Shown here piece by piece: positions 22,481-63,098 of a stretch of 64,000 bases of DNA. The DNA is taken from positions 460-64,459 of the forward strand of contig CAZRXG010000024.1 of assembly GCA_964603985.1 (NCBI GenBank), read 5' to 3'. A program made the translations under genes and the position numbers. Every line of letters begins with the position of its first letter. Within the stretch, counting starts at the first letter, position 1. The DNA comes from an uncultured Anaerolineae bacterium. Its GTDB lineage: Bacteria > Chloroflexota > Anaerolineae > Aggregatilineales > UBA3940. The notes beneath the pieces were generated by a model. The model saw only the letters and a list, made by a program, of their open reading frames with translations, did no database searches and was not told the DNA's origin.

Positions 22481-22558
22481 GGCTGTCCTCTCTTTAACGT
22501 CGTGTCAGATGGGTGGCGAGGTCACGCCAGGGTGTCACGGCGGCCCCGCTTATACCTG

Positions 22559-45542: not shown

Positions 45543-48287
45543 TTAGTACATCACATTATGCAGTGCATCGCAGGCAGGGCATACGCCGCCGGGCCGGACG
45601 ATGGCGTAACCGGCCTGCGGGTCATCCCCCCAACTGGTGAAGTCAACGTTCCAGATGATCGCCAGCCGAACGTAGCCCAACCCCCGCGCGATCTGCACGC
45701 CTTCGGCCAGCCAGGCCGCCTGATCGGCGACCGTGATGGCGGACCCCCAACTCCAGTTGGTAGGCAGCGCGCCGTATCCCTCCCCGGTGACGTAGCCAAA
45801 CTCGGTCAGGCACACTGGCAGCGCGCCGCCCAGACCGTAGTAGTAAACGTCGATGGTCGGCTTGAAGTACCAGCTATGATGCCCACCCCCGCCGTCTGCC
45901 GGATGGCCGGTCGTGGCCGAAGGCGAGGTCGCCCCGGCGTTGTGGTGCGCGCCCACGCAGTTCGCATAGTTTGCCGCACCGGCCGCAGCCAGCCCTTGCA
46001 GGTAGCGGTAGTCGGCCATGGCGATGTCCATGTCGTCCACGCCGGTGGGAGCCAGCGCGCCGATGATGACCATCGTGTTGGGGCTGACCGACTTGATCGC
46101 GTTGAAGCTGGGGGCCAGCATGTTGTTGACGTAATCGGTGGGGCTGTACTGCCCGCGCGGCCACTCCGTGTACAGGTTCATCTCGTTCCAGATCTCAATC
46201 GCATCGGGCTGGTAGCTCGCCACGCCGCGTATGAACTCAACGTAGTTGTTATAGTCAATGCTGGCTGGCGAGAACGGGCCGGGGGTGCTGATCAGCACCT
46301 TGAAGCCCGCTGCCTTGCCCCCTGCGATGAAGCCACCGGCCACGCTGGGATCCAGGCCCGGACTCCACTTGACCTGGAACTTGACCCACGACATACCGGC
46401 GTGCACCATCTCGTTGACGTGGCCCAGCGAACCCGGAACCTGCCCCCCCAGCTCAAATCCGCCGCCGTCCGCCCCGGCCACACCGGCGGAGGGTGGCGGT
46501 GTGGACTCGGTCGGAGCCGGGGTGTCTGTAGGCGGCGGGTTGTCGCCTGCCGAGGCCGGATTGCTGGCCGGGGCCTGGGTCGGTTCGGGAGTGTCCTCCT
46601 CCTCGTCCTCCCCGGACTTGACCTTCACCGACACCGATCCTCGGTCGGAGACCCGCCCGCCAACCACCCGGCCCTGCACAGTGTATTCGCCCGCCTTGGC
46701 AGCCTTCCACACAAACGGCGTGCCGAGGCCGGTGCTCTCGTCCAAAACCGCGCCGCTCGCGTCGCTGACCACCCACTCCATCACCATCTGACTTGGCACA
46801 GATGACACACTGGTGGCCTTGAATTCGTTGATGGCCGTCAGCATACCGGCATCGTTGCCCTCGGCCAGTAGGCCATTGACAACCATGCCGCCGATGTTGT
46901 AGGCAGATGCCATATCGAGGCGCGCCCGGACGGTGTTGGCCATGACGATCCAGACACGGCGCGTGCCCTCGGCGTCCTCCAGCTTGTAGGAGTAAGTACC
47001 GGTGTCCTCCTGGGGCTTCAGTTTGACTGCCGGGCCATCCAGCACGAACGTCAGTTCCTTGCCCGGTTTGTAGCCCCCTTTCGGTTTTTCGGTCTCCAGG
47101 CTCACGGCCCCAAGTCCCGCCAGCGCCTCGTCGTAGCTAATAAGGTTATAAGTCTCGTCTACGGCCTTGATGACGCTCAGCGACGAGAAGGCCACATGTA
47201 TCTTCAGGCGGCTGACCCTGTTCACCGCCCAGGCCAACAGGCTGAGAGCATTGCCGTCGATGGCAAAGTTGCGCGGATCGTTGCTGGTCATGACTACGAC
47301 GGCATCGGCAGCCGCGCCGATACCCTGCCAGTCATACCCGCCGGGGTCCCAGGCAGGAGATTCACCTGCCGGTTGTGGCAGAAAAACGACCAGCAGCTTG
47401 TTGTACTCATCCAGGGCTGCGGCCAGGTCAACGATGAACTGGGTGAACGCCTCGCGGTCGGTGAGGGCGATGCCCTGGTAGTCGATGGCAACGCCGTTGT
47501 AATCGCCGCTGACGACAAATGTCTGCAAATCCTGGATGTGCAGCGCCAGGCTGGCCTCGTTGTTGATCACACTGCTGATCGCGAGACCATTGGCACGAAT
47601 GAGCGGCACAACCGCGTACCCCACACCGAGTTGCCAGCCACTCGCCAGGACTCCGTTCAGAGAGCCATCGGCCTGCACCTGCAACCCGGCCGGGAACACC
47701 ATGTTGAGTGACGAGGCTACCTCGCCGGTCAGCACCTGATCCGCCTCCAGCACGGTGCTGATCAGCGGCGTGACGGCTCTGCTCTGGAAGACGGCGACGT
47801 TGTCCGGAAATTCGTCGGTGTATATCTTCCCGGCTTCAGCATCGACGCGCCCCGGCACGAAGATCCATTTATCTTCTTCGGTGTCCCAACGGTAGAGATC
47901 GAGTGTGTTGTATGGCTGTGAATCGTTGGGGATCAGGATCTCCACCAGAGTCTGGACATCCTCGCTGCGCCGCTCAAGGGTATAGAGCGGGCTTTTCATT
48001 GCCAGATAGGACGGCAGGGCTTCCATGGCTGCCCGGGACTCGCCCTTCTTCTCTCCGGACAGGAATAACTCACGGGGGATGGACCCCAGGCTCACGCGTG
48101 TTGATCCTTCGCCCACCAGGATGATGCTGATACCGTCAGGGTGTGAAGCGGTGGGGTTCTCACTGTCGATCTTCTCAGAGATGGGATGAGCCGCACGGGC
48201 CAGGCCGCCGGATGCGCCGCAGGAAACCAGTACACCGGCCAACACAAGCCCAATAACCGGCAGAAGCAGCTTTTTCGGTTTGAACAT
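45543..48287 (-). CDS. large envelope protein, paralog 1: lipoprotein signal, GH18-like barrel, Ig-like domain, acidic/Pro linker, GH5-like domain
   Basis: Start ATG 48287 has a GGAGA SD and gives MFKPKKLLLPVIGLVLAGVLVSC; ATG 48311 or 48383 are alternatives. GH18-like YNGVAIDYQGI ... AYNIGGMVVNGLL. GH5-like IEIWNEMN and VCLTEFGY. Ends CPACDALHNVMY. Confidence 0.75.
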   Translation of the reverse strand: MFKPKKLLLPVIGLVLAGVLVSCGASGGLARAAHPISEKIDSENPTASHPDGISIILVGEGSTRVSLGSIPRELFLSGEKKGESRAAMEALPSYLAMKSPLYTLERRSEDVQTLVEILIPNDSQPYNTLDLYRWDTEEDKWIFVPGRVDAEAGKIYTDEFPDNVAVFQSRAVTPLISTVLEADQVLTGEVASSLNMVFPAGLQVQADGSLNGVLASGWQLGVGYAVVPLIRANGLAISSVINNEASLALHIQDLQTFVVSGDYNGVAIDYQGIALTDREAFTQFIVDLAAALDEYNKLLVVFLPQPAGESPAWDPGGYDWQGIGAAADAVVVMTSNDPRNFAIDGNALSLLAWAVNRVSRLKIHVAFSSLSVIKAVDETYNLISYDEALAGLGAVSLETEKPKGGYKPGKELTFVLDGPAVKLKPQEDTGTYSYKLEDAEGTRRVWIVMANTVRARLDMASAYNIGGMVVNGLLAEGNDAGMLTAINEFKATSVSSVPSQMVMEWVVSDASGAVLDESTGLGTPFVWKAAKAGEYTVQGRVVGGRVSDRGSVSVKVKSGEDEEEDTPEPTQAPASNPASAGDNPPPTDTPAPTESTPPPSAGVAGADGGGFELGGQVPGSLGHVNEMVHAGMSWVKFQVKWSPGLDPSVAGGFIAGGKAAGFKVLISTPGPFSPASIDYNNYVEFIRGVASYQPDAIEIWNEMNLYTEWPRGQYSPTDYVNNMLAPSFNAIKSVSPNTMVIIGALAPTGVDDMDIAMADYRYLQGLAAAGAANYANCVGAHHNAGATSPSATTGHPADGGGGHHSWYFKPTIDVYYYGLGGALPVCLTEFGYVTGEGYGALPTNWSWGSAITVADQAAWLAEGVQIARGLGYVRLAIIWNVDFTSWGDDPQAGYAIVRPGGVCPACDALHNVMY

Positions 48288-48369
48288 ACGTGTTCTCCGT
48301 GCCATTCTCATGATACTCGCGCCACGATTTGGGTGGACTCGGCCACCCGGAAATCCCTCTGATAGTACC

Positions 48370-51198
48370 TCAGTGCATAACATTACCCAAGGCAGTGCAA
48401 GCCGGGCAACTGCCGTTGGGTCGTATAATGGCGTACCCGGCCATCGGATCGTCGCCCCAATAGGTGAAGTCGACGTTCCACACGATCATCAGGCGCACCT
48501 GGCCGCTTTCCTTGCATAACTGCGCCGCCTCGGCCAGCCAGGCAGCCTGCTGAGCAACGATTGTATTGGCAGCCCAGCTAAAGCGCTCCGGCACGCCGCC
48601 GTAGCCCTCCCCACTGAGATACCCCAGTTCGGTGAAGCAGACGGGCCGGGCAAATGTGCCCCCGTACAGTTGGAGCATGCCCTTGAAGTACCAGCTATAG
48701 TGCTGGTAACCGGGGTCGGCGGGGTGGCCGGTCCCCCACGAGGGCGGCGTCGCGCCGGAGTTGTAGTGTGCGCCCACACAGTCCATGTAGTTGACCGCGC
48801 CCGCCTCGGCCATCTGCTGCAGATAGAGCCAGTCGTCGCAGCCGTAACCCTGCAAGGAGCATCCCCCCTCGCCGAAGTACGCGCCGGTCGGCGCGGGAGC
48901 AGCCGAGATCACCATGATGTTCGGGTTAACGCTCTTAATGGCGTTGTAGGCCGGGGCGAGCAACTCGCGCGTGTAGCGCCCGCCGTCGATCTGGCCACGC
49001 GGCCACTCACGGTCGATGTTGACCTCGTTCCACACCTCGATGGCATCCGGCCCGTAGTATGCCACGCCCCGCAGGAAGTCGAGATAGGCTTCTACGTCGA
49101 TCTCCGTCGGGTACTTGGCCTGGCCGGTGATGCTGAGCAGCACCTTGAAATTTTCGCTCCGCCCACGGTCGATCAGGTCCCAAGCGACGCGCGGGTCCAT
49201 GTCTTCGCCCCAGGCCAGTTGGAACTTGACCCAATCCATGCCCGCCTCGCGCATCCAGTCGGGGTTGCGGATGACGTGGTTGGTCTGGCCGCCCAGTTCG
49301 AAGTTGCCGAATGCTCCCGCTGGCACGAGAGGCGGCGGCAGATCGTCAGGGATGGGCACCTCCTGGTCGGAGGCCTGGGCGGGCATCTCGTCCGGTGCGC
49401 CGACCACGACGGCCTCCTGGCTGGGCACGACGCCCACCGTCTCGCCGCCAACGATGAGCGCCATCGCGCCGCGCTCAGAGATGTCCCCTCCGACCAGATC
49501 CGCGCTGACGACGTACTCACCTTCCGATTCCGGCGTCCACTCCAGCCCCGTGCCCAGGTCGGTGATTGCCTCGGACAGGACCGCACCGCTGGCATCCTGC
49601 ACCGTCCACTGCAAAGATAGGGTCGGGTTCAGGGTGGAGGGCTGGCCGACTTTGAACTCCTGCACTGCGATGAGCATCCCGGCGGCGTTGTCCTCGGCGA
49701 GCAGATCCTCGATGATGATGCCGCCGACGTGATGGGCCGCAACCCAGTCGAGGCGCTCACGTAGCGCAGCCGCCGTCATCAACCAGATGCGGTGTTCGCC
49801 GCCCCCGGCGGAGATCTCGTAGTAATAAATACCGCTCTGCCGGTCACGGGTGACGTTACCGGCCTCTCCCACCAGGTCAAAGGCAAACGTCTGGCCCGAC
49901 TCCGGGTGAAGCGCAGTGCCGGGAGACTCCGGACTGACATCGACCTCACCCAGCGGCGTGAGCGCATACTCGTAGGTGATGGGATTGAGCTGACCGGCCC
50001 ACTCATCAATGCTCAGGGTGGAGAACGCGACGTAAAGCTTGATGCCGCTCACCTCGCCGCTGGCCCACGTCAGAAACCGGTCGGTCAGCCCGCCGGGAAC
50101 GTACTCGCCGGGGCTGCCCGGCGGCGTGACGATCAGAATGTCGGCCAGTTCCCCTAGTTTCCCCCAGTCATATGGGCCGCCATCCCAGCCGGAGTCGGTC
50201 TGAACCGGCGTAGGCAGGCGCAGAGCAAGCAGCTTGTCCTTCCCACCCAGTTCTGACGCGAGATCCTTGGCCAGCGCGTGGAAAGCCGCTTGGTGGGCGT
50301 CGTCTATCTCTCCGTAATCGAGCGCCACCCCCGCGAATTCCTGCCCGGCGAGCAGGGCCGAGACGCTTTCAACGTGCGCTTTCCGGGCGCTGTTGCTTCC
50401 GAGCAATTCGCCAAGCGCCACCGGGTCGGACGGGCGGATGAGCGGCAGAACAGTGTAGCTGCCGACCGGCAGGTTGTCTGTATCCAGGGCCCCGGTATCG
50501 AGCGTGCCGTCGGCCTGTGCCTCGGCCCCCTCGACGAGCAGCAGGTTGATGGCCGCTGCGTATGTCCCGTCGAGTGACTGATCCCCGGTTAAGATCGTGC
50601 CGATCAGGGGGGCAACTGCGCCGTGCCAGAAGAGGGCAACCGGCCCCTTAACCGGCTGCGCCCGAAGTGCGCCCGCCTCGGCATCGATCTGTGCCGGGAC
50701 GAAGCGCCACTGACCGGCCTGTGCATCCCACCGGTAGAGGGCATAAGCAGCCGCGTCCTCGCCGAGGCCAAAGACCAGCCGCACGTCTGCGCTGCGTGTG
50801 GTGATCTCGTAGATCGGGCTGATTGGCTTGAGATAGGCCGGTAGGGCCTCCGCGGCAGCCAGCCACCGGCGTTCTATGTCCCCCCCGAAGACGTTATCCG
50901 CCGGGGTTACCTCGACACGCACGCGGGCAGCCCGCTTACCCTCAAGCGTAACGTTCAGGTACTCGTCAACGCGCATGCTTGGCTCCCCGCCCGTGAGGCG
51001 GGTAGATCGCCCGCTCCCCACCACCAGCAGCCCGGCGACGACCAGCACAATGCCGGCCAGGGCAATCACTCCCCACTTCGTAGGAACGCCCCTGAACAGG
51101 CTGATGGCCCGCGCGAGCCAGGTGGGTTGCTCCTGCCGGGGAGTGGATGGGCGAGCGTCCGGCGCAGTCGGAGCCAGCTTGGTTGGTTCCTCAAACAT
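48370..51198 (-). CDS. large envelope protein, paralog 2 (same architecture, TM anchored)
   Basis: TM helix WGVIALAGIVLVVAGLLVV. FAGVALDYGEI; IEVWNEVN; VCFTELGY. Ends CPACTALGNVMH. Confidence 0.78.
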   Translation of the reverse strand: MFEEPTKLAPTAPDARPSTPRQEQPTWLARAISLFRGVPTKWGVIALAGIVLVVAGLLVVGSGRSTRLTGGEPSMRVDEYLNVTLEGKRAARVRVEVTPADNVFGGDIERRWLAAAEALPAYLKPISPIYEITTRSADVRLVFGLGEDAAAYALYRWDAQAGQWRFVPAQIDAEAGALRAQPVKGPVALFWHGAVAPLIGTILTGDQSLDGTYAAAINLLLVEGAEAQADGTLDTGALDTDNLPVGSYTVLPLIRPSDPVALGELLGSNSARKAHVESVSALLAGQEFAGVALDYGEIDDAHQAAFHALAKDLASELGGKDKLLALRLPTPVQTDSGWDGGPYDWGKLGELADILIVTPPGSPGEYVPGGLTDRFLTWASGEVSGIKLYVAFSTLSIDEWAGQLNPITYEYALTPLGEVDVSPESPGTALHPESGQTFAFDLVGEAGNVTRDRQSGIYYYEISAGGGEHRIWLMTAAALRERLDWVAAHHVGGIIIEDLLAEDNAAGMLIAVQEFKVGQPSTLNPTLSLQWTVQDASGAVLSEAITDLGTGLEWTPESEGEYVVSADLVGGDISERGAMALIVGGETVGVVPSQEAVVVGAPDEMPAQASDQEVPIPDDLPPPLVPAGAFGNFELGGQTNHVIRNPDWMREAGMDWVKFQLAWGEDMDPRVAWDLIDRGRSENFKVLLSITGQAKYPTEIDVEAYLDFLRGVAYYGPDAIEVWNEVNIDREWPRGQIDGGRYTRELLAPAYNAIKSVNPNIMVISAAPAPTGAYFGEGGCSLQGYGCDDWLYLQQMAEAGAVNYMDCVGAHYNSGATPPSWGTGHPADPGYQHYSWYFKGMLQLYGGTFARPVCFTELGYLSGEGYGGVPERFSWAANTIVAQQAAWLAEAAQLCKESGQVRLMIVWNVDFTYWGDDPMAGYAIIRPNGSCPACTALGNVMH

Positions 51199-51218
51199 GA
51201 AGCGTCTACGACCTCATC

Positions 51219-53897
51219 TCAAGGCTGCACTGCGTGCAGGGTATCGCAGGCCGGGCAGCCCCCGCCAGGGCGGATGATCGCGTAGCCGCCCTGCGGGTCC
51301 GAGCCGTAGACGGTGAAGTCCACGTTGAAGATGATCATCAGGCGCACTTTGCCACTCTGCGACGAGAGCACCGCCGCCTCGGCCAGCCAGGCGGCCTGCT
51401 CGGCGACGGACGTGTTCTGCGCCCAGGAGAAAGCCTGCGGCAGCGCACCGTAGCCTTCGGGCGAGAGATAACCCAGTTCGGTGAAGCACAGCGGCTTGCC
51501 GAAAGTCCCGTAGTACAGGTCTAGCATGCCGAAGAAGTAGCGTGTGTAGTGCTCGCTGCGCGGGTCGCCGCTGGTCTGGGACGGTGGGATGATGCCCTCG
51601 TTGTAGTGGATGCCAACGCAGTCCAGGTGATTGGCGGCCCCCGCATCACGCATCTGCGCGAGGTAGAACCAGTCGTCGCAGCCCTCAGGCGCACACCCAC
51701 CCCAGTAACCGGTAGGCGATGGTGCGCCGGAGATGACCATCACGTTTGGATTCGCAGCTTTAATGGCCTGGTAAGCGGGCGCAAGCATGTTGTTGACGTA
51801 GTTCGCGCCGTCGATCTGCCCGTAAGGCCACTCGCGGTCGAGGTTCATCTCGTTCCAAACCTCGATGGCATCCGGCCCCAGCGCGGCGACCCCGGCCAGG
51901 TATTTGACGTAGGCGTTGTAGTCGATGGCGTCGGGGTGATCGCCGCCGGGGATGCTCAAAAGCACCTTGAACCCCAGCGAGTGCGCCTGAGAGATGCGCC
52001 CGCCGACCGATCCACTGGGATCGTCACCGCGGCCCCACTTATGCTGGAACTTGACCCAGGTCATGCCCGCCTGTCGCATCGCGTCCGGGTGTTCGAGCGT
52101 GTGTGTCTGGCCGCCCAGTTCAAACGCGCCGGGCGCAATTGCGTCGCCGACCGGGGCCTGGGTGGGTTCCGCGGCGGGCGCCGATGTCTCGTCCGGGTTG
52201 GGCGTGGCTCCCGGATCGGGTGTGGCGGTCGGCGTCGGCTGGTCGGCGTTGGGAGGGGCCGCGCCCACCTCGACGACCACCTGCCCGCGCCCGCTCTCGC
52301 CCGACTGGCCGCTGATCCCGGCGCTGACGACGTACAGGCCCGGTTCGGCGACGGCCTGCCACAGGTATTGCAGCAGCGTGAGGTCGCCCTGGGCCTGGCT
52401 CAGGCTGGCCCCGGACGAGGTTTGCGTGCGCCACACAATCGCCAACGGTTCCGGGTCGCTGATAGGCTGCTGGTTGAGAAAGGCGCTGATGCCATCCCCC
52501 AGGCGATGAGGCGCATCCGGGTGGACGAGGCCATGCACAACGACGGTTCTCAGGCCGTAGTAGCGGGCCCAGGCCAGCTTACGCTTCAAGTTTTGGGCCG
52601 AACCAAAATAGACGTGATGCAACTGCGTGGCTTCGTCGTGATAGGTCAGGTAATTCATGCCAAGCGGTACGTCGAAGCCCATCGAGTCGATCTGGCCGGT
52701 GAGACGGAAGGGGACGGGGTTGCCCGGCACTATCGGGACGGTGGGGTCAATGTAACCCTCGATCGGCTGGATGCTCCCGAAAAGTGCCATCGCGTCTTCC
52801 GTCTGGATGGGTGTCACGCTCTCGCCGCTCACGTCGACGTTCAGGCCGCTGACCAGCAGGCCGAGTTTGTTGCGGTCGACCATGTCTACCAATCCGGCCA
52901 GCATCTCCTGGGCGGGGCCGTTGGGCAGGTAAACCGTCGGGTTGTCGCCAGGGGCGACCAGGATGTGGTCTGCATGGCGGGCCAGCGTGGCGGGGTCGTA
53001 GGCCGATGGAGAGAGACCGCGCAGGACAATGTCCAGGCGTTTGCCGTGCGCGTGAACCTCTTCGGCCAGCCTGGCGACGAGTTCGGCATAGCCCTCACCG
53101 GGGTCGAAGTCGAGCACCAGGCCATCGTAGGGGGTGAGGAGCGGCATCAGGTAGTTAACGATGGTATCCTGCCGGGCGGGATCGGTATAAGTGGTCAGCC
53201 CGCCCAGCCGATTTTCGATCAGCGGCATCACGGTTGAGCCGTCACCGCTGACCGGTTCGCCGACGAACTCACCTTCGGCGGAGATATAGACGCCCTCCAG
53301 AATGGCGAGGCCATAGTTGGGGTCGAGATCGGGGCTCCCTACGCTGAAGATCACGCCCACGGCCGGCGACTGCGGTTCGACGCGCCCGGCGAGCACGCTG
53401 ATCGGCAGGCTCTCCGGCTGGAAGACAATCACCTGGCGGGCCTGATCCTGATCGCCGGGCACGAAGACCCAGGCACCGGTTTCCTCGTCCCACCGGTAGA
53501 GGTCAAGCAGCGCCAGAGGGTCCGCCTCGTTGGGGATCGCCATCTCCGCGACGATCTGTCCCTCATCGCGCCCTCTCACAGTGTAGATCGGGCTGAGCGG
53601 GGTCAGGTAGGCGGGCAGAGCTTCGCGTGCCGCGCGCCACGATTTATCTGCCTGGCCGGTGAGGAAAGTCTCGCGCGGAATGCTCTCGATCTCGACCTGT
53701 GCCGCTTCGGTTCCCTCGGCCAGCCTGACAACCAGGCCGTCGGGGTGGGACGTGGTCGGGTTGGCCGCGTCGAGCCTGACATATGCCCCATCTCGACCCG
53801 GCACCAGCACCACGATCAGTACTACCACGACGGCGGCGATCAGCACGCCACCACCGATCATGATCCAGGTTCGTTTAGGTAGGCTGCCGAGGCGCAT
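51219..53897 (-). CDS. large envelope protein, paralog 3 (same architecture, TM anchored)
   Basis: Start moved to ATG 53897 (MRLGSLPKRTWIMIGGGVLIAAVVVVLIVVLV) by alignment with the paralogs; the longer track ORF overlaps the divergent DUF1624 gene. IEVWNEMN; LCFTELGY. Ends CPACDTLHAVQP. Confidence 0.78.
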   Translation of the reverse strand: MRLGSLPKRTWIMIGGGVLIAAVVVVLIVVLVPGRDGAYVRLDAANPTTSHPDGLVVRLAEGTEAAQVEIESIPRETFLTGQADKSWRAAREALPAYLTPLSPIYTVRGRDEGQIVAEMAIPNEADPLALLDLYRWDEETGAWVFVPGDQDQARQVIVFQPESLPISVLAGRVEPQSPAVGVIFSVGSPDLDPNYGLAILEGVYISAEGEFVGEPVSGDGSTVMPLIENRLGGLTTYTDPARQDTIVNYLMPLLTPYDGLVLDFDPGEGYAELVARLAEEVHAHGKRLDIVLRGLSPSAYDPATLARHADHILVAPGDNPTVYLPNGPAQEMLAGLVDMVDRNKLGLLVSGLNVDVSGESVTPIQTEDAMALFGSIQPIEGYIDPTVPIVPGNPVPFRLTGQIDSMGFDVPLGMNYLTYHDEATQLHHVYFGSAQNLKRKLAWARYYGLRTVVVHGLVHPDAPHRLGDGISAFLNQQPISDPEPLAIVWRTQTSSGASLSQAQGDLTLLQYLWQAVAEPGLYVVSAGISGQSGESGRGQVVVEVGAAPPNADQPTPTATPDPGATPNPDETSAPAAEPTQAPVGDAIAPGAFELGGQTHTLEHPDAMRQAGMTWVKFQHKWGRGDDPSGSVGGRISQAHSLGFKVLLSIPGGDHPDAIDYNAYVKYLAGVAALGPDAIEVWNEMNLDREWPYGQIDGANYVNNMLAPAYQAIKAANPNVMVISGAPSPTGYWGGCAPEGCDDWFYLAQMRDAGAANHLDCVGIHYNEGIIPPSQTSGDPRSEHYTRYFFGMLDLYYGTFGKPLCFTELGYLSPEGYGALPQAFSWAQNTSVAEQAAWLAEAAVLSSQSGKVRLMIIFNVDFTVYGSDPQGGYAIIRPGGGCPACDTLHAVQP

Positions 53898-54122
53898 CCT
53901 GATTTGCGCCAGTATGCCCGTGATCGTCTCCAAATGATCAGATCCTTGTACAGCGAAAAGGCGGCCCGACTGCTTTTGCCGCCCCCTGTCTGGACTTTGC
54001 GAGTGTACCTCATGTGGGCTGCATTCTACCGTGCGCCCCTTGAATCTGCAATAAAGCCAATCGTGTATAATGGCCCTGCCCGACCCTGGCGCACACACGC
54101 CAGATGAGGCGGTAAACGCACT

Positions 54123-55274
54123 ATGAAACAACCCCCCAATCCGGCAAATGAGCCTGTGCCCCGTCTGCCGTTTATCGACTTTGGGCGTGGCCTCGTGATG
54201 GTGCTGATGGCATGGGATCACGCTTCGGCATTCTGGAACCCCGGTCGGCGGGCCAACGAAGGGCTGATGGGGATGCAGCCCGCGTTCCCGAGCCTGACAC
54301 AGTTCCTGCTGCGCTTTGTGACCCACTTTGTCGCGCCGACGTTCATCTTCCTGGCGGGTACGTCACTGGCGCTCTCGGCGGCCAGGCGTCTGGCACGGGG
54401 ACAGTCCCAGGCCAGCCTATCACTGCATATGGTCGTCCGTGGAATGGTGCTTCTGGCGTTTGAGGCGCTGCTCGTTGCCCCGGCATTCGATCTGCCGCGG
54501 CTTTACTTCGGTGTGATCGCCTGCATCGGCGTGTGTCTGGTGCTGTTCAGTGCCCTGCGCTTCCTGCCCCCGCCCGTCATCCTGGCCCTCTCGGCGGTCA
54601 TTATCCTCGGCCACCCCCTCCTGAACCTCGACTTCATCCCCGACGGCCGTACCGCGCCCCTGGGTCATTATCTGCACGTCATCACGCACGAGCCACGCTT
54701 TGATTTCTACCCATATGTCGGTCTCTACCCCATCATTCCCTGGCTGGGCGTGATGGGTCTCGGCTGGTGCTTTGGCATTTTCCTGCATCGCTTCGATTGG
54801 TCGCAGCCCCGGCGGCTGGCATTGGGGCTGGCCGGGACAGGGGGCGTGTTGTATGCCGCGTGGTTTGTCGTGCGGCTGCTGAACGGCTACGGCAACCTCC
54901 TGCCGCGCCAGGGCAGCGCCCTTGTCGACTGGCTGTACGTCTCAAAGTACCCGCCAAGTCCGGCTTTTCTGCTGTTCACGCTGGGGGGGATGTGCTTCAT
55001 CCTGGCGCTGGGGGTCGCGCTGCAGGATCGACTGGATTTCAAGCGCGGCCTTACGGGGGCTATCGCGACGATGGGGCGCGTGCCGCTCTTCTTCTACCTG
55101 TCTCACCTGTGGCTGTATAAGGTCGCCCCGCGTCCATTCGCGGGCCTGTTTGATGCCAGATTACTCGCGACGGCGATCTTCTGGGCAGCCGGGCTGGCGC
55201 TCCTGTGGCAGTTGTGCGCCCTATACGGGGAGTTGAAGCGACGCCATCCGGGGTCGGTGCTGCGGTACGTGTGA
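54123..55274 (+). CDS. DUF1624 / heparan-alpha-glucosaminide N-acetyltransferase-like membrane protein
   Basis: FIDFGRGLVMVLMAWDHASAFW N-terminal signature followed by about 10 TM helices. Confidence 0.75.
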   Translation: MKQPPNPANEPVPRLPFIDFGRGLVMVLMAWDHASAFWNPGRRANEGLMGMQPAFPSLTQFLLRFVTHFVAPTFIFLAGTSLALSAARRLARGQSQASLSLHMVVRGMVLLAFEALLVAPAFDLPRLYFGVIACIGVCLVLFSALRFLPPPVILALSAVIILGHPLLNLDFIPDGRTAPLGHYLHVITHEPRFDFYPYVGLYPIIPWLGVMGLGWCFGIFLHRFDWSQPRRLALGLAGTGGVLYAAWFVVRLLNGYGNLLPRQGSALVDWLYVSKYPPSPAFLLFTLGGMCFILALGVALQDRLDFKRGLTGAIATMGRVPLFFYLSHLWLYKVAPRPFAGLFDARLLATAIFWAAGLALLWQLCALYGELKRRHPGSVLRYV

Positions 55275-56097: not shown

Positions 56098-58356
56098 ATG
56101 GTGAAAAAACAACTTGTTTCTCTGTTCCTTCTCGTCAGTGTGCTGTTGAGTGCGTGCGCCTTCCTGCCGTCTTCCTCACCCACCTCATCGCCCTCGACCA
56201 GCGCTCAGGCCACTCCCACCGCCGTCGATGTCACGCAGGACCCCGACGGTGTCGCCAACGCCTTTTTGAGTGCCTGGATGGCGGGCGATTACGCGGGCAT
56301 GTACAGTTTGCTCTCGCCAAATAGCCAACTCGAGTACAGCCTCGAAGAATTCACCGACACCTATGCCACCACGGCGGGGACGATGACACAGGTCGGCGTT
56401 GAGGCGACGCCGCTGTCCGCCCTCCAGTCCACCGGGACGACGGCGCAACTGGTCTTCCACGTGAAGTATACGACCCACGCGCTGGGTGAGATCGAACAAG
56501 AGACGACCATGAACCTGGTCTTCGACGACGAGCGCTGGGGCGTCGCCTGGACACCGGCGTTGATCTTCCCTGAGTTGGCCGGAGGCAATACTCTCCAGCT
56601 TGAGGTCGAGACACCCGCCCGCGCCAACATCTACGACCGCAACGGCCAGTGGCTGGTGGCGGCCAACGCCGAGGCGTTCACCGTCCAGATCGTTCCTGGC
56701 GAGATCAGCTCGGACTACGAAGGCCGGATGCTCAATCTGCTCAGCCAGGTCCTGCGCATCCCACCCGACGAGATCCGGCAGAACTATGCGGGTCTGCCCG
56801 AAGATCAGTACTGGGCACTTGGTGACGCCGACGCCGAGACTATCCAGGCCAACTGGAGCGCTCTCAGCAGCTACCCCGGCCTTTACTTCGCCGAGAAAAC
56901 CGGGCGTCGCTACTTCAACCTGCTTGCCCCCCACGTCCTGGGCTACACCAGCTTCATCCCCGAAGAGCAGTTGGATGCCTACAAGGGCCGTGGCTACCGG
57001 GGTGACGAGATCGTCGGGTTGAGCGGGTTGGAGCTGTGGGGCGAGACTTACCTGGCCGGAACGGCGGGCGGCATCTTAAGCGCCTACACACCCAGTGGCG
57101 AGTACTTCGCCGAGGTTGCCCGGCGCAGTCCCGAGCCTGCCCAGGGCGTCTATACTACCATCGATAAAGAGTTGCAGGCTATCGTCCAGGACGCGATTGA
57201 GGAAGCCTACCGCGTTTCGACCGAGACGTGGGCGCCCACCTCAGGCGGCGCAGCGGTAGTCGTTCTGGATGTCAATAGCGGCGATGTCCTGGCTATGGCC
57301 AGCTACCCGTACTTCGACCCCAATGTGCTGCATCCCTACAACAACCACCCCCAGGCTACCCCGGAGTACCTGAGCAACCTGTTTAACGACCCTCGCAAGC
57401 CCTTCCTGAACCGCGCGACGCAGGGCCTATACCCCGCTGGCTCGATCTTCAAGATCATCTCGGCGGCGACCGCGCTGGGGAGTGGCCTCTACGATCCCGA
57501 CACCACGTACACCTGCACCGGTGTGTGGGATGGGCTTGGCAGCGACCCCGAAAACCTGCGCTACGACTGGTACGAAGAGGGACACGGCACGCTCAACCTT
57601 CCGCAGGCTCTGACGGCCTCGTGCAACCCCTATTTCTATCAGGTTGGCTTTGTCACCGGCAAGGAGGACTTCAGCCTGCTTGCGGATTACGCCCGCCAGT
57701 TCGGGTTAGGGCAGGAGCTAGGCATCCAGATCGCAGAGGAAGCCGGGCAGGTCCCCGATCCCGACTGGCTGTGGCAGGAGCGCGGTGAGCAGTGGGACAT
57801 CGCGGACAGCGTCAATGTCGCCATCGGGCAGGGGCCTATTCAGGTCACGCCGCTCCAGATGGCCGTTATGGTGGCCACCATCGCCAACGGCGGGACGGTC
57901 TACCAGCCCCAGCTTGTGGATCGCATCGGCCTGATCGGCGAGGAGCCGATCCTCGTCTTTGAGCCGGTCGTGCTCAATACGGTTCCGCTTGAGCCGGAGC
58001 ATTTTGAGGCCATCCGCGAGGGCATGCGCGGAGTGGTAAACAATCCGACGATCGGCACTGCCCAGTACCGGCTGGGCAGCATGGGAATCTCCGCCGCCGG
58101 GAAGACCGGCACGGCCCAGGTCTCCAAGCCGGGCGCTCCACCCATCGCCTGGTTTATCGGCTTCGTCCCTTACGAGGAGCCCGAGCTTGCCATCGCGGTG
58201 ATGGTTGAGAACAGTGGACAGGGATCCGGCGTAGCCGCGCCGATCTTCCGCCGCATCGTCGAGCGTTGGTACGGGCTGAGTGTGCTCCCCTACCCAGGAG
58301 ACTGGAGCGACCCGGAGCTTTTCGACTTCGTCACGGACGAGGTCCTCGGCGAGTAG
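56098..58356 (+). CDS. class B penicillin-binding protein (PBP2-like transpeptidase) with N-terminal NTF2-like domain
   Basis: Lipoprotein-like signal (LLVSVLLSAC). SxxK (GSIFKII), SxN (TASCNPYF) and KTGT motifs. AGGAG SD. Confidence 0.9.
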   Translation: MVKKQLVSLFLLVSVLLSACAFLPSSSPTSSPSTSAQATPTAVDVTQDPDGVANAFLSAWMAGDYAGMYSLLSPNSQLEYSLEEFTDTYATTAGTMTQVGVEATPLSALQSTGTTAQLVFHVKYTTHALGEIEQETTMNLVFDDERWGVAWTPALIFPELAGGNTLQLEVETPARANIYDRNGQWLVAANAEAFTVQIVPGEISSDYEGRMLNLLSQVLRIPPDEIRQNYAGLPEDQYWALGDADAETIQANWSALSSYPGLYFAEKTGRRYFNLLAPHVLGYTSFIPEEQLDAYKGRGYRGDEIVGLSGLELWGETYLAGTAGGILSAYTPSGEYFAEVARRSPEPAQGVYTTIDKELQAIVQDAIEEAYRVSTETWAPTSGGAAVVVLDVNSGDVLAMASYPYFDPNVLHPYNNHPQATPEYLSNLFNDPRKPFLNRATQGLYPAGSIFKIISAATALGSGLYDPDTTYTCTGVWDGLGSDPENLRYDWYEEGHGTLNLPQALTASCNPYFYQVGFVTGKEDFSLLADYARQFGLGQELGIQIAEEAGQVPDPDWLWQERGEQWDIADSVNVAIGQGPIQVTPLQMAVMVATIANGGTVYQPQLVDRIGLIGEEPILVFEPVVLNTVPLEPEHFEAIREGMRGVVNNPTIGTAQYRLGSMGISAAGKTGTAQVSKPGAPPIAWFIGFVPYEEPELAIAVMVENSGQGSGVAAPIFRRIVERWYGLSVLPYPGDWSDPELFDFVTDEVLGE

Positions 58357-58380
58357 CTCTCACGCTGTGGCCGTGAATCA

Positions 58381-58419
58381 GACACCCCCCGGCTGGCGAG
58401 ACCTATGCCGGGGGGTGTC
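58381..58419. terminator. 13-bp perfect hairpin between convergent PBP and VWA genes
   Basis: GACACCCCCCGGC, a 13-nt loop, then GCCGGGGGGTGTC. No U-run on either side. Confidence 0.5.
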
Positions 58420-58437
58420 ATCATGCCCGGTGGAAAT

Positions 58438-59415
58438 CTAGGCCTGCCCGACCTTCATCTCCTCGCGCACGGTGTGGTACAGCAGATCCGCCCGCAACTC
58501 TTGCAGTGTGTAGCACGGGCCGTCCAACCGGTCGGCCAGTTGCTTGGCTAAGCCCTGGTCAAAGCTGGCGTGCTCCATGTTGATCACGACCGACCGGATG
58601 TCCGTCTCGCGGATCTGGTCGGCGATCAGGTGCGCCTCCTCCTGGGGGGGCAGGTTGCCCATCGAGACGTTGCCCGCCCCGTCGGTCAGCAGGATCAGCA
58701 GCGGCATGGCATCCGGGTGCGAGAGTTTATCGCGCTTGAAGACCTCCAGGGTCAGCGCCAGCCCGGCCGAGAGCGGCGTTTTCCCGCCCACAGGAATATC
58801 GACCAGTGCCTTCCTGGCTAGCTCCACCGAGTTGGTCGGCGGCAGGACGAGCTGCGCCCGGTCCTTCTGGAAGACGACCAGCCCGACCCGGTCCCGCCGC
58901 TGGTAGGCGTCGGTCAGCAGCGACATGATCGCGCCTTTGGTAGCCGACATACGCTCGGCCACGGCCATGCTCCACGAAGCATCGACCACGAACACCACTA
59001 GGTTGGCCTGCTTCTTGACGCGCACCTTGCGCTGCAAATCGTGCTTCCGGATGGCAAAGGCGAGATCCCCCCTGTCGCGCTCTATCTGGTAGGGTGCTGC
59101 TGCCCGTATCGTGGCGTCGAAGGCAATGTCGCTTGTGCCATCGTGGGCCGGGCGTGCCTGGATGTAGCGCCCGCGCTTGAGATCGGTGGGCGATTGGCTG
59201 CGCCGACCGCTCTGCCGCCGCGTGAGCCGGTCGAGTTTGGTATCCAGCTGTCGTGTGATTTTGAACTCTTCGCCGGGCTGAACTTCCTGCCCGCCTTCCC
59301 ACCAGTGCGCGTCCTGGGTCTGGAAGACTACCTGCTGGCGGGCGGCCTCGGTGGGGGTCGCCTCCGGCGTCTCGTCAACGGGGGCGCTCTCGTCTAATAC
59401 GTCATGTTTTTTTTT
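58438..59415 (-). CDS. VWA-domain reading frame (ChlD-like C-terminal half), reachable only by a frame change from the upstream gene
   Basis: VWA MIDAS motif VVFVVDASWSM. The track start is a TTG at 59037, but the frame is open and protein-like up to 59442 with no ATG/GTG/TTG in those 135 codons. It joins the ChlI-like frame at the A9 run. Confidence 0.6.
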   Translation of the reverse strand, partial: KKKHDVLDESAPVDETPEATPTEAARQQVVFQTQDAHWWEGGQEVQPGEEFKITRQLDTKLDRLTRRQSGRRSQSPTDLKRGRYIQARPAHDGTSDIAFDATIRAAAPYQIERDRGDLAFAIRKHDLQRKVRVKKQANLVVFVVDASWSMAVAERMSATKGAIMSLLTDAYQRRDRVGLVVFQKDRAQLVLPPTNSVELARKALVDIPVGGKTPLSAGLALTLEVFKRDKLSHPDAMPLLILLTDGAGNVSMGNLPPQEEAHLIADQIRETDIRSVVINMEHASFDQGLAKQLADRLDGPCYTLQELRADLLYHTVREEMKVGQA

Positions 59416-60500
59416 ACTTCCAGGCCCTCGTCGGCCATCTGCTCATCGGCCATCCCAGACGACTCATCCCCGCTGCGAGCCTGCTCGAGGCGTTCTTCGA
59501 GGTCATGCAGGCTGACCGGAGTCTCATCGAGGGGGCTGCGTTTGAGGCGATGCGGCAGCGCCAGTTCGGCTGCCAGCAGGATGTCGTGCTCGGTGATGGT
59601 GCTTCGCCCGTCGAAGGCGGCGTGTGCCCGTGCCGTCTTGAGAATGACCAGGTCGGCGCGGTGCCCATCCACGTGCAGGCTGGCCGTCAGGTTGGCGATG
59701 GTGGACAGGTCGCGGCGCGTGTAGGTGACTTGGTCAACGATCTGCTTTGCGTGGGCTACCGTCCGTGAGAGTTGTTCCTCCTGGGGAAGCCATTCCTCAC
59801 GGAAGACGACCGGATCTTCCTCAAACTCGATGCACCGCTCCAACACGGCCATGCGTTCGGCTGAGTGAATCAGGCCACGCACATCGACGCACAGCGCGAA
59901 CCGGTCCAGCAGTTGGGGCCGCAGGTCACCTTCTTCCGGGTTCATCGTCCCGATCAACATGAAGCGCGCCGGGTGGGTGAAGCTGATTCCCTCCCGCTCA
60001 ACCACGTTGATGCCCATCGCCGCCGAGTCGAGCAGCAGGTCAACGACGTGATCGTCCAGCAGGTTCACCTCATCCACGTAAAGGATGCCCCGGTTGGCCG
60101 CCGCCAGCACCCCCGGCTCGAAGTGGCGCTCCCCGCGCTGGATGGCCTTCTCAATGTCCAACGTCCCGACCACACGGTCCTCGGTGGCGCTGACCGGCAG
60201 ATCCACCAGCCGGATGCGCCGGGTCGTGATGGGGAGATCCTCTCCCAGGGCAGAACGCTCGCGGCACTCGTCGCACCACGTCTCGGGGCGTTCGGGGTCG
60301 CAGCTAAACCGGCAGTCGGCCACGACCCGGATCTCCGGCAGCAAGGCTGCCAGCGCACGCGCAGCAGTGCTTTTCGCCGTGCCACGTTCTCCGCGAATCA
60401 GCACTCCCCCGATTCGCGGGTCAACGGCATTAAGAATCAGAGCGCGCATCATGCGCGCCTGCCCGACGATGGCTGTAAATGGGAAAATGACTGCGGACAT
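59394..60500 (-). CDS. ChlI/BchI-like AAA+ ATPase (Mg-chelatase I family)
   Basis: FPFTAIVGQARMMRALILNAVDPRIGGVLIRGERGTAKST (Walker A), ILYVDEVNLLDDH (Walker B), and the C-terminal helical domain. Confidence 0.88.
   Translation of the reverse strand: MSAVIFPFTAIVGQARMMRALILNAVDPRIGGVLIRGERGTAKSTAARALAALLPEIRVVADCRFSCDPERPETWCDECRERSALGEDLPITTRRIRLVDLPVSATEDRVVGTLDIEKAIQRGERHFEPGVLAAANRGILYVDEVNLLDDHVVDLLLDSAAMGINVVEREGISFTHPARFMLIGTMNPEEGDLRPQLLDRFALCVDVRGLIHSAERMAVLERCIEFEEDPVVFREEWLPQEEQLSRTVAHAKQIVDQVTYTRRDLSTIANLTASLHVDGHRADLVILKTARAHAAFDGRSTITEHDILLAAELALPHRLKRSPLDETPVSLHDLEERLEQARSGDESSGMADEQMADEGLEVKKNMTY
59407..59415 (-). other. A9 homopolymer / A_AAA_AAC slippery heptamer at the ChlI-VWA junction
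   Basis: T9 on the plus strand. In the ChlI frame the minus strand reads GTA AAA AAA AAC ATG ACG TAT TAG. The -1 frame reads AAA AAA AAA CAT GAC..., which is the VWA frame. Confidence 0.6.
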
Positions 60501-60565
60501 GAGATATCTCGTCTCGTGATGTCAATAAAGCGTTGGTCTGTTCTGTTTGGGTATTTCCCGGTGGG

Positions 60566-60595
60566 ATTATACCGCAGCCGCAGAAGCCGTAACAA
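60566..60595 (-). promoter_or_regulatory. candidate promoter for the ChlI-like gene
   Basis: Minus strand reads TTGTTA (60595-60590), 18-nt spacer, TATAAT (60571-60566). Confidence 0.4.
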
Positions 60596-60599
60596 GCGA

Positions 60600-61388
60600 C
60601 TAGAGAAGCAAGGTGGTCTCGCCTGCGTTCAGCCGGTGACGCTGGCCGGTATCATCGCGCAGCCACAGCGCGCCGCTTGGGTCAATATCCTCCGCCAGCC
60701 CCTCAAGTGACCCGCCCGGCACCCCGGCCCGGACCCGCTGTCCGATGGTCACGCAGCGCGCTCGCCACGCTTCGGGCAGCGCGTCGTCGCCCAAACGCGC
60801 GTACCAGCCACTCAACCGCGTCATGATCTCCGCCAGCAGGGCCGCCCGGTCGTGCTCACTGCCGGTCGCCACCCGCAGGCTGGTGGCCGTCTCGCCCAGA
60901 GGGTCGCCCGCTTCAAAGATCTGGTTCACGTTGATGCCCATCCCCACCACGATCCACAGCAGGTCTTCGCCCACAACGGCGCTCTCCGGCAGTATCCCGG
61001 CGAATTTCTTCCCGCCGATCTGTAAGTCATTCGGCCACTTCACCACGACCTGCACGTCCGCCAGTGCTTCGCACGCCTCGGCAATTGCCAGCCCGCAGGC
61101 CGTCACAACCCGGTAGGCTATCCCCGGCGGTATCCCCGGACGGAAGATCACCGACATCAGCAGGCTGGTGTTGGGTGGCGCTTCCCACACCCGGCCCATG
61201 CGACCCCGCCCGGCGGTCTGCTCGTCCGTGATGACCAGTGTGCCCTCCGGCGCGTGGTTGGCGGCCAGCTCGCGGGCCAGGCCGTTCGTCGAGCCAATGC
61301 GCGGGTGATAGTGCACGTTGGCTCCAAAAGGGCCGGTCTCCCGCCCACATAGGACGTTCCAGATAAGGCGCGTCGAAAGTGGTCGCAT
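60600..61388 (-). CDS. birA: biotin--[acetyl-CoA-carboxylase] ligase (group I, no HTH)
   Basis: GRGRMGRVWEAPP biotin-binding loop and KWPNDL. At 262 aa there is no N-terminal repressor domain. Confidence 0.9.
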   Translation of the reverse strand: MRPLSTRLIWNVLCGRETGPFGANVHYHPRIGSTNGLARELAANHAPEGTLVITDEQTAGRGRMGRVWEAPPNTSLLMSVIFRPGIPPGIAYRVVTACGLAIAEACEALADVQVVVKWPNDLQIGGKKFAGILPESAVVGEDLLWIVVGMGINVNQIFEAGDPLGETATSLRVATGSEHDRAALLAEIMTRLSGWYARLGDDALPEAWRARCVTIGQRVRAGVPGGSLEGLAEDIDPSGALWLRDDTGQRHRLNAGETTLLL

Positions 61389-61403: not shown

Positions 61404-63098
61404 CTACAGTGATGTGCTCATGTAGAGCCTGCCCAGCTCGAAACCCTGCCGCCGATAATACTCCCGTGTCCCGACGGCGGCAATGACGGCCAGCCGCGTG
61501 TAGCCCGCTGCCTGCGCTCGCCTGCGCGCCTCCTCAATCAGCCGCCCGCCGATGCCCTGGTGCTGCGCCTGCCCATCGGACTCGTCATCCAGCGCCAGCG
61601 CCGGGCCGTAGACCTGCACCTGCCGGATGATCGCCTGTCCGTTGACCTCCTCGATGGGGGCCGGGGCCGTCGGCAGCGAGAGGCGCAGGAAGCCCGCCAG
61701 CCGGTCGCCCGGCGTGACGGCGCTGATGAACACCTCGCGGCTGTGGTCGGTGTCATAGGGAATCGCTGCAATGCGGATCTCCGCCGGGTCGACCCGCTCA
61801 CCGCGCACTTCGCGGCAGCGGATGCAGCGGCAGGGTGTCCCGGCCTCGACGAGCCTGCGCTGTACGATCTGCCGCAGGTTGGAGGTGACCACCCCATCGA
61901 CGATCTCCGGCGCAGGGATGTCGCGCATCACCCGATTGAGGCGGCAGTATTCCGGCACCAGCCTCTTGCAGGCCGCCAGCAGCCCGGTAAGCTCTTCCTC
62001 ACTGTAGGGGTGATACTCGCCGTGCAGGTAGTGATCGTACAGTTCGGTGCCGCGCAGCAGGCCGGTAGGATAGAGCTTCATCTCATCCGGGCGGAGGGCC
62101 GGGTCATCCCAGAAGCGCCGGAAATCGGCCAGGTCGGACTCCGGCGTCGCGCCGAGCAGATTCGGCATCCAGTGCAGGGCCACTTTGAACCCCGCGCCCC
62201 GCAGCAGTCGTACTGCCCGCCGGGCGTCGGCGACGGTCTCACCGCGCCTGTTGCGCGCCAGGATCTGATCGTCGAGGCTCTGGACGCCCAGTTGCACGCG
62301 CGTGACGCCCAACCGACGCAGGCGGCGTGTCTCCTCCAGGGTGATATAGTCAGGGCGGGTTTCGACGGTCAGGCCGACGTTGCGGTGGGACGCGCGCTCA
62401 TTGAGGCAGTGCGCCTCTTCGAGCGTTGCCGCCTCGACGCCGTTCATCGCATCGAAGCAGCGCCGGACAAACCACTCCTGGTAGTCATGCGGGTAGCTCG
62501 ACCACGTGCCGCCCAGGATCAGCAGCTCGACCTTGTCGGTCGTGTGGCCGATGTTGCCCATCGCCCCCAGGCGGAAGGCGACCTGCTGGTAGGGGTCAAA
62601 CTCCAGCATCAGCGCGCGCATCGCGCCTGGCTCGTTGCTGAGGTAGCTTTTGGGCATGCGGAGGTCGTCCGGGCAGAAGATACACGTGCCGGGGCAGGGG
62701 ACGGGCTTAGTGAGCACGGTGACGGGCGCTACCCCGCTCAGCGTGCGGGTGGGCTTCATCGTCAGGCGGCGCAGGACAAGCTCGTCCGCCTCAACGGCTC
62801 CGACCTCAACCAATGCCAGGTAGCCGCGCCGCAGGTTAGCCTTGCTGGTTTGCGGGTGGCCCGCGCGCGCCATGCGGCGCGAGATGTGGTTATACGACTC
62901 GCCGTCCCAGTCCGGCTCGGCCCGGATCGCTTCCACATAAGCCAGGATGTGCTTCCGCTCGGCATCCAGGTCGACCGGGCGAGCGTTGCGGGCGCGCCAC
63001 CGGGCCTGCTGCTGTGGCGACGTGCCTTTGGCGCGTGGCACGAATGCGTGTCCGGGGCGGCGCTGCCTGTGCGGTGCAGTGTTGAATTGCTCGCTCAC
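61404..63098 (-). CDS. elp3: bacterial Elp3-like radical SAM / GNAT enzyme
   Basis: Radical SAM cluster motif CPGTCIFCP, the central Elp3 region, and a C-terminal GNAT motif QHQGIGGRLIEEA. Confidence 0.85.
   Translation of the reverse strand: MSEQFNTAPHRQRRPGHAFVPRAKGTSPQQQARWRARNARPVDLDAERKHILAYVEAIRAEPDWDGESYNHISRRMARAGHPQTSKANLRRGYLALVEVGAVEADELVLRRLTMKPTRTLSGVAPVTVLTKPVPCPGTCIFCPDDLRMPKSYLSNEPGAMRALMLEFDPYQQVAFRLGAMGNIGHTTDKVELLILGGTWSSYPHDYQEWFVRRCFDAMNGVEAATLEEAHCLNERASHRNVGLTVETRPDYITLEETRRLRRLGVTRVQLGVQSLDDQILARNRRGETVADARRAVRLLRGAGFKVALHWMPNLLGATPESDLADFRRFWDDPALRPDEMKLYPTGLLRGTELYDHYLHGEYHPYSEEELTGLLAACKRLVPEYCRLNRVMRDIPAPEIVDGVVTSNLRQIVQRRLVEAGTPCRCIRCREVRGERVDPAEIRIAAIPYDTDHSREVFISAVTPGDRLAGFLRLSLPTAPAPIEEVNGQAIIRQVQVYGPALALDDESDGQAQHQGIGGRLIEEARRRAQAAGYTRLAVIAAVGTREYYRRQGFELGRLYMSTSL

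Follow-up and report, generated by a model that had tools for sequence, protein, structure and literature searches.

The Mg-chelatase frameshift cluster was defined by Antonov et al. 2013 (NAR, PMC3711429); it comprised 23 genes, included the Chloroflexi genus Herpetosiphon, and was experimentally validated. A section of the review by Atkins et al. 2016 (PMC5009743) is devoted to Mg-chelatase recoding, and, according to papers that cite it, Antonov 2020 (MBE) extended the family to >1,200 genomes. Kuznetsov et al. 2022 (PMC9227772) described such genes, termed fs-chlD, in Brevefilum, Anaerolinea, Ornatilinea, Longilinea, and Levilinea, with signals that usually consist of a slippery site and a downstream structure. 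The chlorophyll and B12 pathways, and also the large subunit, are all missing in Brevefilum and in Spirochaeta thermophila, and the function of such I/D pairs was already raised as an open question in that study (PMC9227772). Here, we analyzed a stretch of 64,000 nt (64 kb, 64.3% GC; hereafter the window) from an uncultured Anaerolineae bacterium (Chloroflexota), in which the open reading frame (ORF) of a ChlI-like AAA+ ATPase and a VWA ORF meet, both on the minus strand, at nine consecutive A (A9). The locus is a further example of the published fs-chlD recoding family rather than a new system, and the family has already been described for the same bacterial class. An earlier, sequence-only reading of this DNA had referred to reports of chelatase recoding at A-runs; such reports do exist (PMC3711429, PMC5009743, PMC9227772).

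Very probably, the locus belongs to the fs-chlD family, and a one-base slip at A9 lets its one gene yield a short ChlI-like ATPase as well as a long ChlD-like protein. The features of the gene are collected in Table 1. All sequence features described in the sequence-only reading were confirmed. Translation reproduced the two frames that the sequence-only reading had drawn, i.e., the ChlI-like ORF (60500–59394, ending GLEVKKNMTY*) with a length of 368 aa, and a VWA frame that follows a TGA at 59445–59443, is open from 59442, and ends with a stop at 58440–58438. After its TGA, the VWA frame reads ADGRRGPGSKKKHDVLDES..., and 135 codons without a start codon go by before the TTG at 59037 is reached. 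This TTG is the first ATG, GTG, or TTG of the frame, with none earlier in the ORF listing, and more than 40 invariant residues (within W36 to R130, alignment A1) precede this sole start codon. Relative to the ChlI-like ORF, the VWA ORF lies in the −1 frame, and the two frames overlap at A9, exactly at the nine A given before (59407–59415). The zero-frame codons around the run are GTA AAA AAA AAC ATG ACG TAT TAG, and two heptamers are in phase within it, A_AAA_AAA (A1–A7) and A_AAA_AAC (A4 to C). The latter had been proposed as the slippery heptamer and is indeed in phase, but it is not the sole one. A9 is the sole A9/T9 of the window, where 0.01 would be expected from dinucleotide shuffles, and also the sole A or T homopolymer of at least 7 bases across the 64 kb.

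Table 1. Coordinates of the fs-chlD gene, its parts, and its flanking signals in the window.
Feature	Position	Strand	Basis
Complete recoded fs-chlD gene (zero-frame ORF plus −1 continuation; conceptual product of 687 aa)	58438..60500	-	translation; TIGR02442 match
Zero-frame ORF: ChlI/BchI-like AAA+ ATPase, 368 aa, 'small subunit' product, ATG at 60500, C-terminus ...GLEVKKNMTY*	59394..60500	-	translation, Pfam, PDB
A9 slippery run, GTA AAA AAA AAC in the zero frame; site of passage to the −1 frame	59407..59415	-	read from sequence
Zero-frame stop TAG, beginning 10 nt past the run	59394..59396	-	read from sequence
+1-frame stop TGA, beginning 2 nt past the run	59402..59404	-	read from sequence
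Acidic, Pro-rich linker in the −1 frame, HDVLDESAPVDETPEATPTEAARQQVVFQTQDAH	59305..59406	-	translation; varies among relatives, frame open in 76/76
Conserved pre-VWA region, WWEGG to AFDATIRAAAP, reported as wholly upstream of the first possible start (TTG 59037)	58999..59304	-	invariant columns W36 to R130, alignment A1
VWA (integrin I-like) domain with the MIDAS residues DASWS (58969–58983), GGKTPL, and LTDGAGN	58543..58998	-	Pfam VWA_2 and VWA; PDB BchD 2x31_A
Walker A, GERGTAKS	60369..60392	-	motif; MCM-like variant with Ala before Lys
Walker B, ILYVDEVN	60063..60086	-	motif
Match to a sigma-70-like promoter (TTGTTA-18 nt-TATAAT), located between the start codon of the chelatase gene and birA	60566..60595	-	consensus match only; 1 site versus 0.3 expected in shuffles
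GC-rich inverted repeat, 13 bp without mismatch around a loop of 13 nt, GACACCCCCCGGC...GCCGGGGGGTGTC, between the convergent chelatase and PBP2 genes	58381..58419		read from sequence

One added A gives a conceptual fusion of 687 aa, close to the 'about 700 aa' estimated before, with the junction ...LEVKKKHDVLDES... Within this product, LEVKKKHDVLDESAPVDETPEATPTEAAR is a junction peptide, and the junction peptide HDVLDESAPVDETPEATPTEAAR comes after ...LEVKKK. The zero-frame ORF matched Mg_chelatase, AAA_lid_2, and AAA_5 in Pfam, and the −1 frame matched VWA_2 and VWA (residues 149–300). The linker of the D-like product, DESAPVDETPEATPTE, is acidic and Pro-rich, and is followed by the C-terminal VWA domain with its metal ion-dependent adhesion site (MIDAS). 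The fusion aligned to positions 1–640 of 641 of the NCBIfam model TIGR02442 (putative cobaltochelatase, ChlI/ChlD fusion type) with 777.4 bits and E = 1e-233, and to positions 4–604 of 608 of the BchD-ChlD model TIGR02031, for which the score of 426 was under the cut-off of 500. Structures in the PDB similar to the fusion were those of ChlI (8osf, E = 8e-105; 6l8d) and BchI (1g8p) for residues 3–326, and that of BchD (2x31) for residues 500–641. The conceptual fusion shows the D-subunit architecture (AAA+ module, acidic/Pro linker, VWA domain) that the sequence-only reading had assigned to it. The Walker A and Walker B motifs and the MIDAS are all intact in the window and conserved among relatives. 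Regarding Walker A, the motif matches of the relatives read GERGTAKS or GEKGTAKS in 67/73 and GERGTGKS in the other 6; GERGTAKS has Ala, as MCM helicases do, at the position that is Gly in ChlI/BchI and in the P-loop consensus.

For the comparison with relatives, one genome per species was used, resulting in 80 loci, all from metagenome-assembled genomes and nearly all labelled Anaerolineae or Chloroflexota. The upstream AAA+ ORF is included in 79 of the 80 loci, which formed the set for frame counts. In 75/79 relatives, the VWA frame is offset by −1 and the overlap contains an uninterrupted run of A, which supports the proposal of the sequence-only reading that I-like and D-like products arise from one locus by −1 recoding at an A-run. 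These 75 relatives and the window together make up the 76 loci to which the following counts refer. Run lengths were A9 (52 loci), A10 (18), A8 (4), and A7 (2), so that A9 or A10 accounts for 70/76. Codon phase (0, 1, or 2) and length of the run vary, yet the −1 relation is kept. An alignment of orthologs had been suggested as a check, and it revealed a clear difference between the run, conserved to 100%, and the 12 bases on each side, conserved to 33–50% save for the base right after the run (G in 84%). In 73/76 loci, the zero frame is closed by a stop no more than 15 nt past the run, the −1 frame is free of stops over the 58 nt after the run in 76/76, and no ATG, GTG, or TTG is found from the upstream stop of the −1 frame to the invariant WWEGG in 46/76. 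The signal, kept by 75/79 of the Chloroflexota species sampled, is strongly maintained.

One alternative is that of two ordinary genes, in which the VWA protein would be translated separately, either from a non-canonical start or through reinitiation or coupling once the stop of chlI has been passed, and a fusion would not exist. Relatives are indeed annotated with separate VWA proteins of ~300 aa: the top 120 homologues of the VWA part in the database, which are 66–99% identical, are called as separate proteins of 266–334 aa with inconsistent N-termini, apart from two partial fusions. In addition, some ATG, GTG, or TTG is present between the run and WWEGG in 29/76 loci, and evidence of downstream initiation beside frameshifting was seen in some other clusters (Antonov 2013, PMC3711429). 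However, these start codons are scattered from +3 to +84, 46/76 loci have none at all before WWEGG, and in the window the startless stretch of 135 codons ends with a TTG that follows the >40 invariant residues. Separate initiation would also leave a perfectly conserved A-run amid unconserved flanks unexplained, and the fusion is colinear with full-length ChlD-type models. We consider two independently initiated genes very unlikely.

Since poly-A tracts slip in replication too, the run could instead be a site of phase variation, at which replication slippage toggles the D-like product, or the gene could be decaying, with the VWA part as a pseudogene remnant. The range of A7–A11 among species and one in-frame variant would fit such a scenario. 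Yet phase variation predicts mixed frame states, whereas 75/79 relatives are in one state, and a cytoplasmic product among housekeeping neighbours is not typical of a contingency locus. The VWA part shows ~135 invariant alignment columns and a MIDAS that is intact throughout; together with the 66–99% identity, this indicates strong purifying selection, and the VWA part is therefore not a pseudogene. Both versions of this alternative are highly improbable.

Several observations weigh against the reading as a single recoded gene that encodes two proteins. With 777.4, the TIGR02442 score falls slightly short of the curated cut-off (779.45), and the locus is named as a putative chelatase by homology only. 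For the large subunit, we surveyed 42 window ORFs with Pfam, including all three of at least 900 aa; no CobN/ChlH-like protein was found among them, as the sequence-only reading had stated for the window. ORF clustering in the ±4 kb flanks of the 80 relatives yielded no conserved neighbour gene, and thus no large subunit, but only the gene itself and antisense shadow ORFs. Furthermore, 4/79 relatives are off the −1 pattern. L029 and L050 show a +1 relation with A9, at least the former on a long contig of an MFD-named assembly, and we suspect homopolymer errors in both. L056 is an in-frame A11 fusion (...TVEKKKGLSQE..., about 500–530), L023 is a degraded locus, and the partial fused database proteins P0104 and P0105 read through a KKK junction. 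These deviants could be true DNA-level length variants or homopolymer assembly errors; in either case, they show that length variation in the DNA, or noise in the assemblies, does occur to some extent at the run.

The same deviants bear on the possibility that the split itself is a sequencing or assembly error, and that the true gene is a plain in-frame ChlD-like fusion with A10. Homopolymers are error-prone, L056 as well as P0104 and P0105 have the continuous frame that such a gene would have, and the wrong (+1) relation of L029 and L050 points in the same direction. On the other hand, the −1 split is the consensus in 75/79 species from many projects, with runs of 7–10 and a constant frame relation, and a plain fused gene would have no reason to keep a zero-frame stop within 15 nt in 73/76 loci. 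A9 itself was found again in a JGI metagenome contig from a distinct strain, which differs at 27/2063 positions (single-nucleotide polymorphisms), and in an independent Logan assembly, which is identical over 1695 nt. An error at the run is thus a most improbable explanation of the split. In view of the 75/79 relatives in the −1 state, the zero-frame stops, and the 46/76 startless loci, none of the three alternatives (an error in sequencing, separate initiation, or phase variation) explains the locus well, and we retain the reading as one gene that is decoded in two ways.

Following this reading, we infer that a single transcription unit gives rise to two proteins. Standard decoding would run into the TAG 10 nt past A9 and produce the ChlI-like AAA+ ATPase of 368 aa, whereas a sizeable fraction of events would pass to the −1 frame at A9 and produce the ChlD-like protein of 687 aa, in which the same AAA+ module is followed by the acidic/Pro-rich linker and the VWA/MIDAS domain. 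Two routes to the long product are conceivable. RNA polymerase may slip on the T9 template, so that the mRNA gains one A, or the ribosome may slip by −1 on A_AAA_AAA or A_AAA_AAC, which would result in the same protein. It is known that RNA polymerase slips efficiently in vivo at 9 A or T, and that the RNA:DNA hybrid measures 9–10 bp (PMC5009743). At this locus, slippage of RNA polymerase is in our view slightly more likely to contribute the larger share, because the run has the length of the RNA:DNA hybrid, neither a stimulatory structure nor a Shine–Dalgarno (SD)-like element was found, and both non-productive frames close at once.

With respect to RNA structure, no stimulatory element above shuffled controls was detected at the run of the window, be it in the 70 nt downstream, the 60 nt upstream, or the 104 nt across it (z = +0.5, +0.4, and 0.0, respectively). 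The mean z was about 0 in the A9/A10 relatives in general, on the downstream as well as the upstream side, and a hairpin was found only in the A8 clade and in L010. SD-like motifs upstream of the run showed no positional enrichment over the 76 loci, and Rfam, frameshift elements included, returned zero matches at E ≤ 1 in 58300–60700. As to the non-productive frames of the window, both are shut immediately, by the TAG at +10 and the TGA at +2. Transcripts with a wrong number of A would therefore still yield I-like protein, as in Thermus thermophilus dnaX: those with one A fewer or two more would stop at the +1-frame TGA (59402–59404) and encode an I-like product. Stops in the +1 frame are near the run among the loci in general (median of 14 nt); however, they are not decisive for transcriptional slippage, because the GA-rich acidic linker could create them as a by-product.

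Cassettes in E. coli showed shifting that increased with the length of the run, from 10% (A7) to 40% (A9) and 63% (A11), with mechanisms that were not separated (PMC3711429). Other data speak for the ribosome. Heptamers are in phase in the window, and A_AAA_AAA is in phase in every A7 and A8 relative. Moreover, the A8 clade and L010, which has A9, carry a conserved 8-bp GC-rich hairpin 8 nt past the run, GCTGACCG-loop-CGGTCAGC (L010, L011, L012, L031, and L040). Its stem encloses the zero-frame TGA, its loops are variable, and L040 shows one compensatory change from C-G to U-A. This hairpin looks like a stimulator of ribosomal frameshifting without a counterpart in the A9/A10 loci. The hairpin of the A8 clade is typical of ribosomal frameshifting and, together with the in-phase heptamers, speaks against a purely transcriptional form of the mechanism; the family clearly can use the ribosome.

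By analogy with Mg- and Co-chelatase (PMC7689651), the I-like and D-like products may assemble into an I/D AAA+ motor complex, in which the subunit ratio would be governed by how efficiently slippage occurs. The part that engages a client would be the VWA/MIDAS domain; the client is normally the CobN/ChlH large subunit and, in TIGR02442-type systems, CobN. With regard to the genomic surroundings, no tetrapyrrole genes were found among the 42 Pfam-scanned ORFs of the window, which yielded only housekeeping functions, i.e., MutL, the his operon (hisG/D/C), PurH, ArsA-like ATPases, PBP2, BirA, an Elp3-like radical SAM protein, and RluA; the 30 of these ORFs that lie further along the window are housekeeping genes or Pfam-negative. 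In Anaerolineae without ChlH/CobN, the I-like and D-like pair could possibly work as a stand-alone AAA+/VWA machine on a client other than a tetrapyrrole chelatase subunit, e.g., in metal-centre maturation similar to NorQD or CbbQO, and the recoding could have switched between the ribosome (the A8 clade with its hairpin) and stimulator-free RNA polymerase slippage (A9/A10). We regard this combined proposal as tentative and rather doubtful; apart from the mechanistic switch and the client's identity, nothing in it would be new.

Upstream of the chelatase gene lie birA and the genes for an Elp3-like radical SAM protein and a pseudouridine synthase. The Elp3-like protein (Radical_SAM and Radical_SAM_C, 564 aa) is encoded at 61404–63098 on the minus strand, upstream of birA and the chelatase gene, and this order is kept in the JGI contig L081. 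At the other end of the gene, the inverted repeat at 58381–58419 probably forms a bidirectional terminator hairpin that lacks a U tract; a simple terminator scan missed it because a T run is absent. Elsewhere on the minus strand, three consecutive ORFs of 946, 942, and 1035 aa occupy 45543–54326; two of them are Pfam-negative, and one has a weak sub-threshold match to GH18, with no CobN-type match for any. Two adjoining genes for ArsA/Get3-like ATPases (334 and 325 aa) are located at 21476–23536, likewise on the minus strand.

The consequences for annotation are direct. The locus should be annotated as one recoded gene with two products, and not as chlI next to a truncated VWA ORF of 199 aa and a spurious antisense ORF. 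Gene callers shorten the VWA gene to 199 aa from the TTG, and they cover the startless linker region with a Pfam-negative antisense ORF of 118 aa (window 59041–59397, plus strand; L081 6613–6969; L082 1292–1648); this is an artefact that the recoding site causes in annotation. Besides the corrected annotation, our analysis extends a known recoding family by a clade with dense sampling, and it sets most A9/A10 members, without a detected stimulator, against one A8 clade with a hairpin. The locus thereby sharpens two questions, namely which machine slips without a stimulator, and what role a ChlI/ChlD pair has without a large subunit.

Compared to the known systems, the locus resembles the fs-chlD family in all major respects. 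A ChlI-like AAA+ ORF and a VWA ORF overlap at −1 on poly-A with a zero-frame stop just after; the two products are counterparts of the small and the medium subunit of the chelatase, with a zero-frame product of small-subunit size (368 aa here); and a conserved A-rich slippery site is combined with a fusion that shows full-length homology to medium subunits encoded without a split. Nothing essential differs. The genome analyzed here is not listed in the publications on the family, and the sole structural deviation is that the optional downstream structure was not found here or in most A9/A10 relatives. The proteins described by TIGR02442 and by BchD/ChlD (TIGR02031) share the colinear arrangement of AAA+ module, acidic/Pro linker, and VWA domain with MIDAS, but they are encoded by single uninterrupted ORFs, whereas the gene in the window is split by a frameshift, stands alone, and has a promoter-like site of its own. 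According to the TIGRFAM description, members of TIGR02442 usually adjoin cobN or B12/cobalt genes; in contrast, the window ORFs scanned here hold no tetrapyrrole genes.

Regarding the recoding itself, dnaX offers two precedents. T. thermophilus dnaX, with transcriptional slippage at A9, has the same run length and likewise non-productive frames that close immediately, and the homopolymeric A/T run of at least 9 bases, i.e., of hybrid length, is what the locus shares with transcriptional realignment of the T. thermophilus dnaX or insertion sequence (IS)-element type in general. E. coli dnaX, with −1 ribosomal frameshifting on A_AAA_AAG, represents the ribosomal type of cassette and has an in-phase X_XXY_YYZ heptamer in common with the locus, but its SD-like element and hairpin were not found here. 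Both dnaX genes, like the reading proposed here, give two products that share an N-terminal AAA+ module and whose ratio is set by slippage on an A-run. The polarity is reversed, however: the long product would need the slip here, and the short one would be the default.

A further comparison concerns the possible work of the two proteins. In NorQ/NorD, CbbQ/CbbO, CoxD/CoxE, and RavA/ViaA, an AAA+ ATPase and a VWA/MIDAS protein act together on a client metalloprotein. The ATPases of these pairs are MoxR-type and not ChlI-type, and the partners are encoded by separate genes without recoding. For an I/D pair without CobN or ChlH, such as the one predicted here, these pairs nevertheless provide a plausible model.

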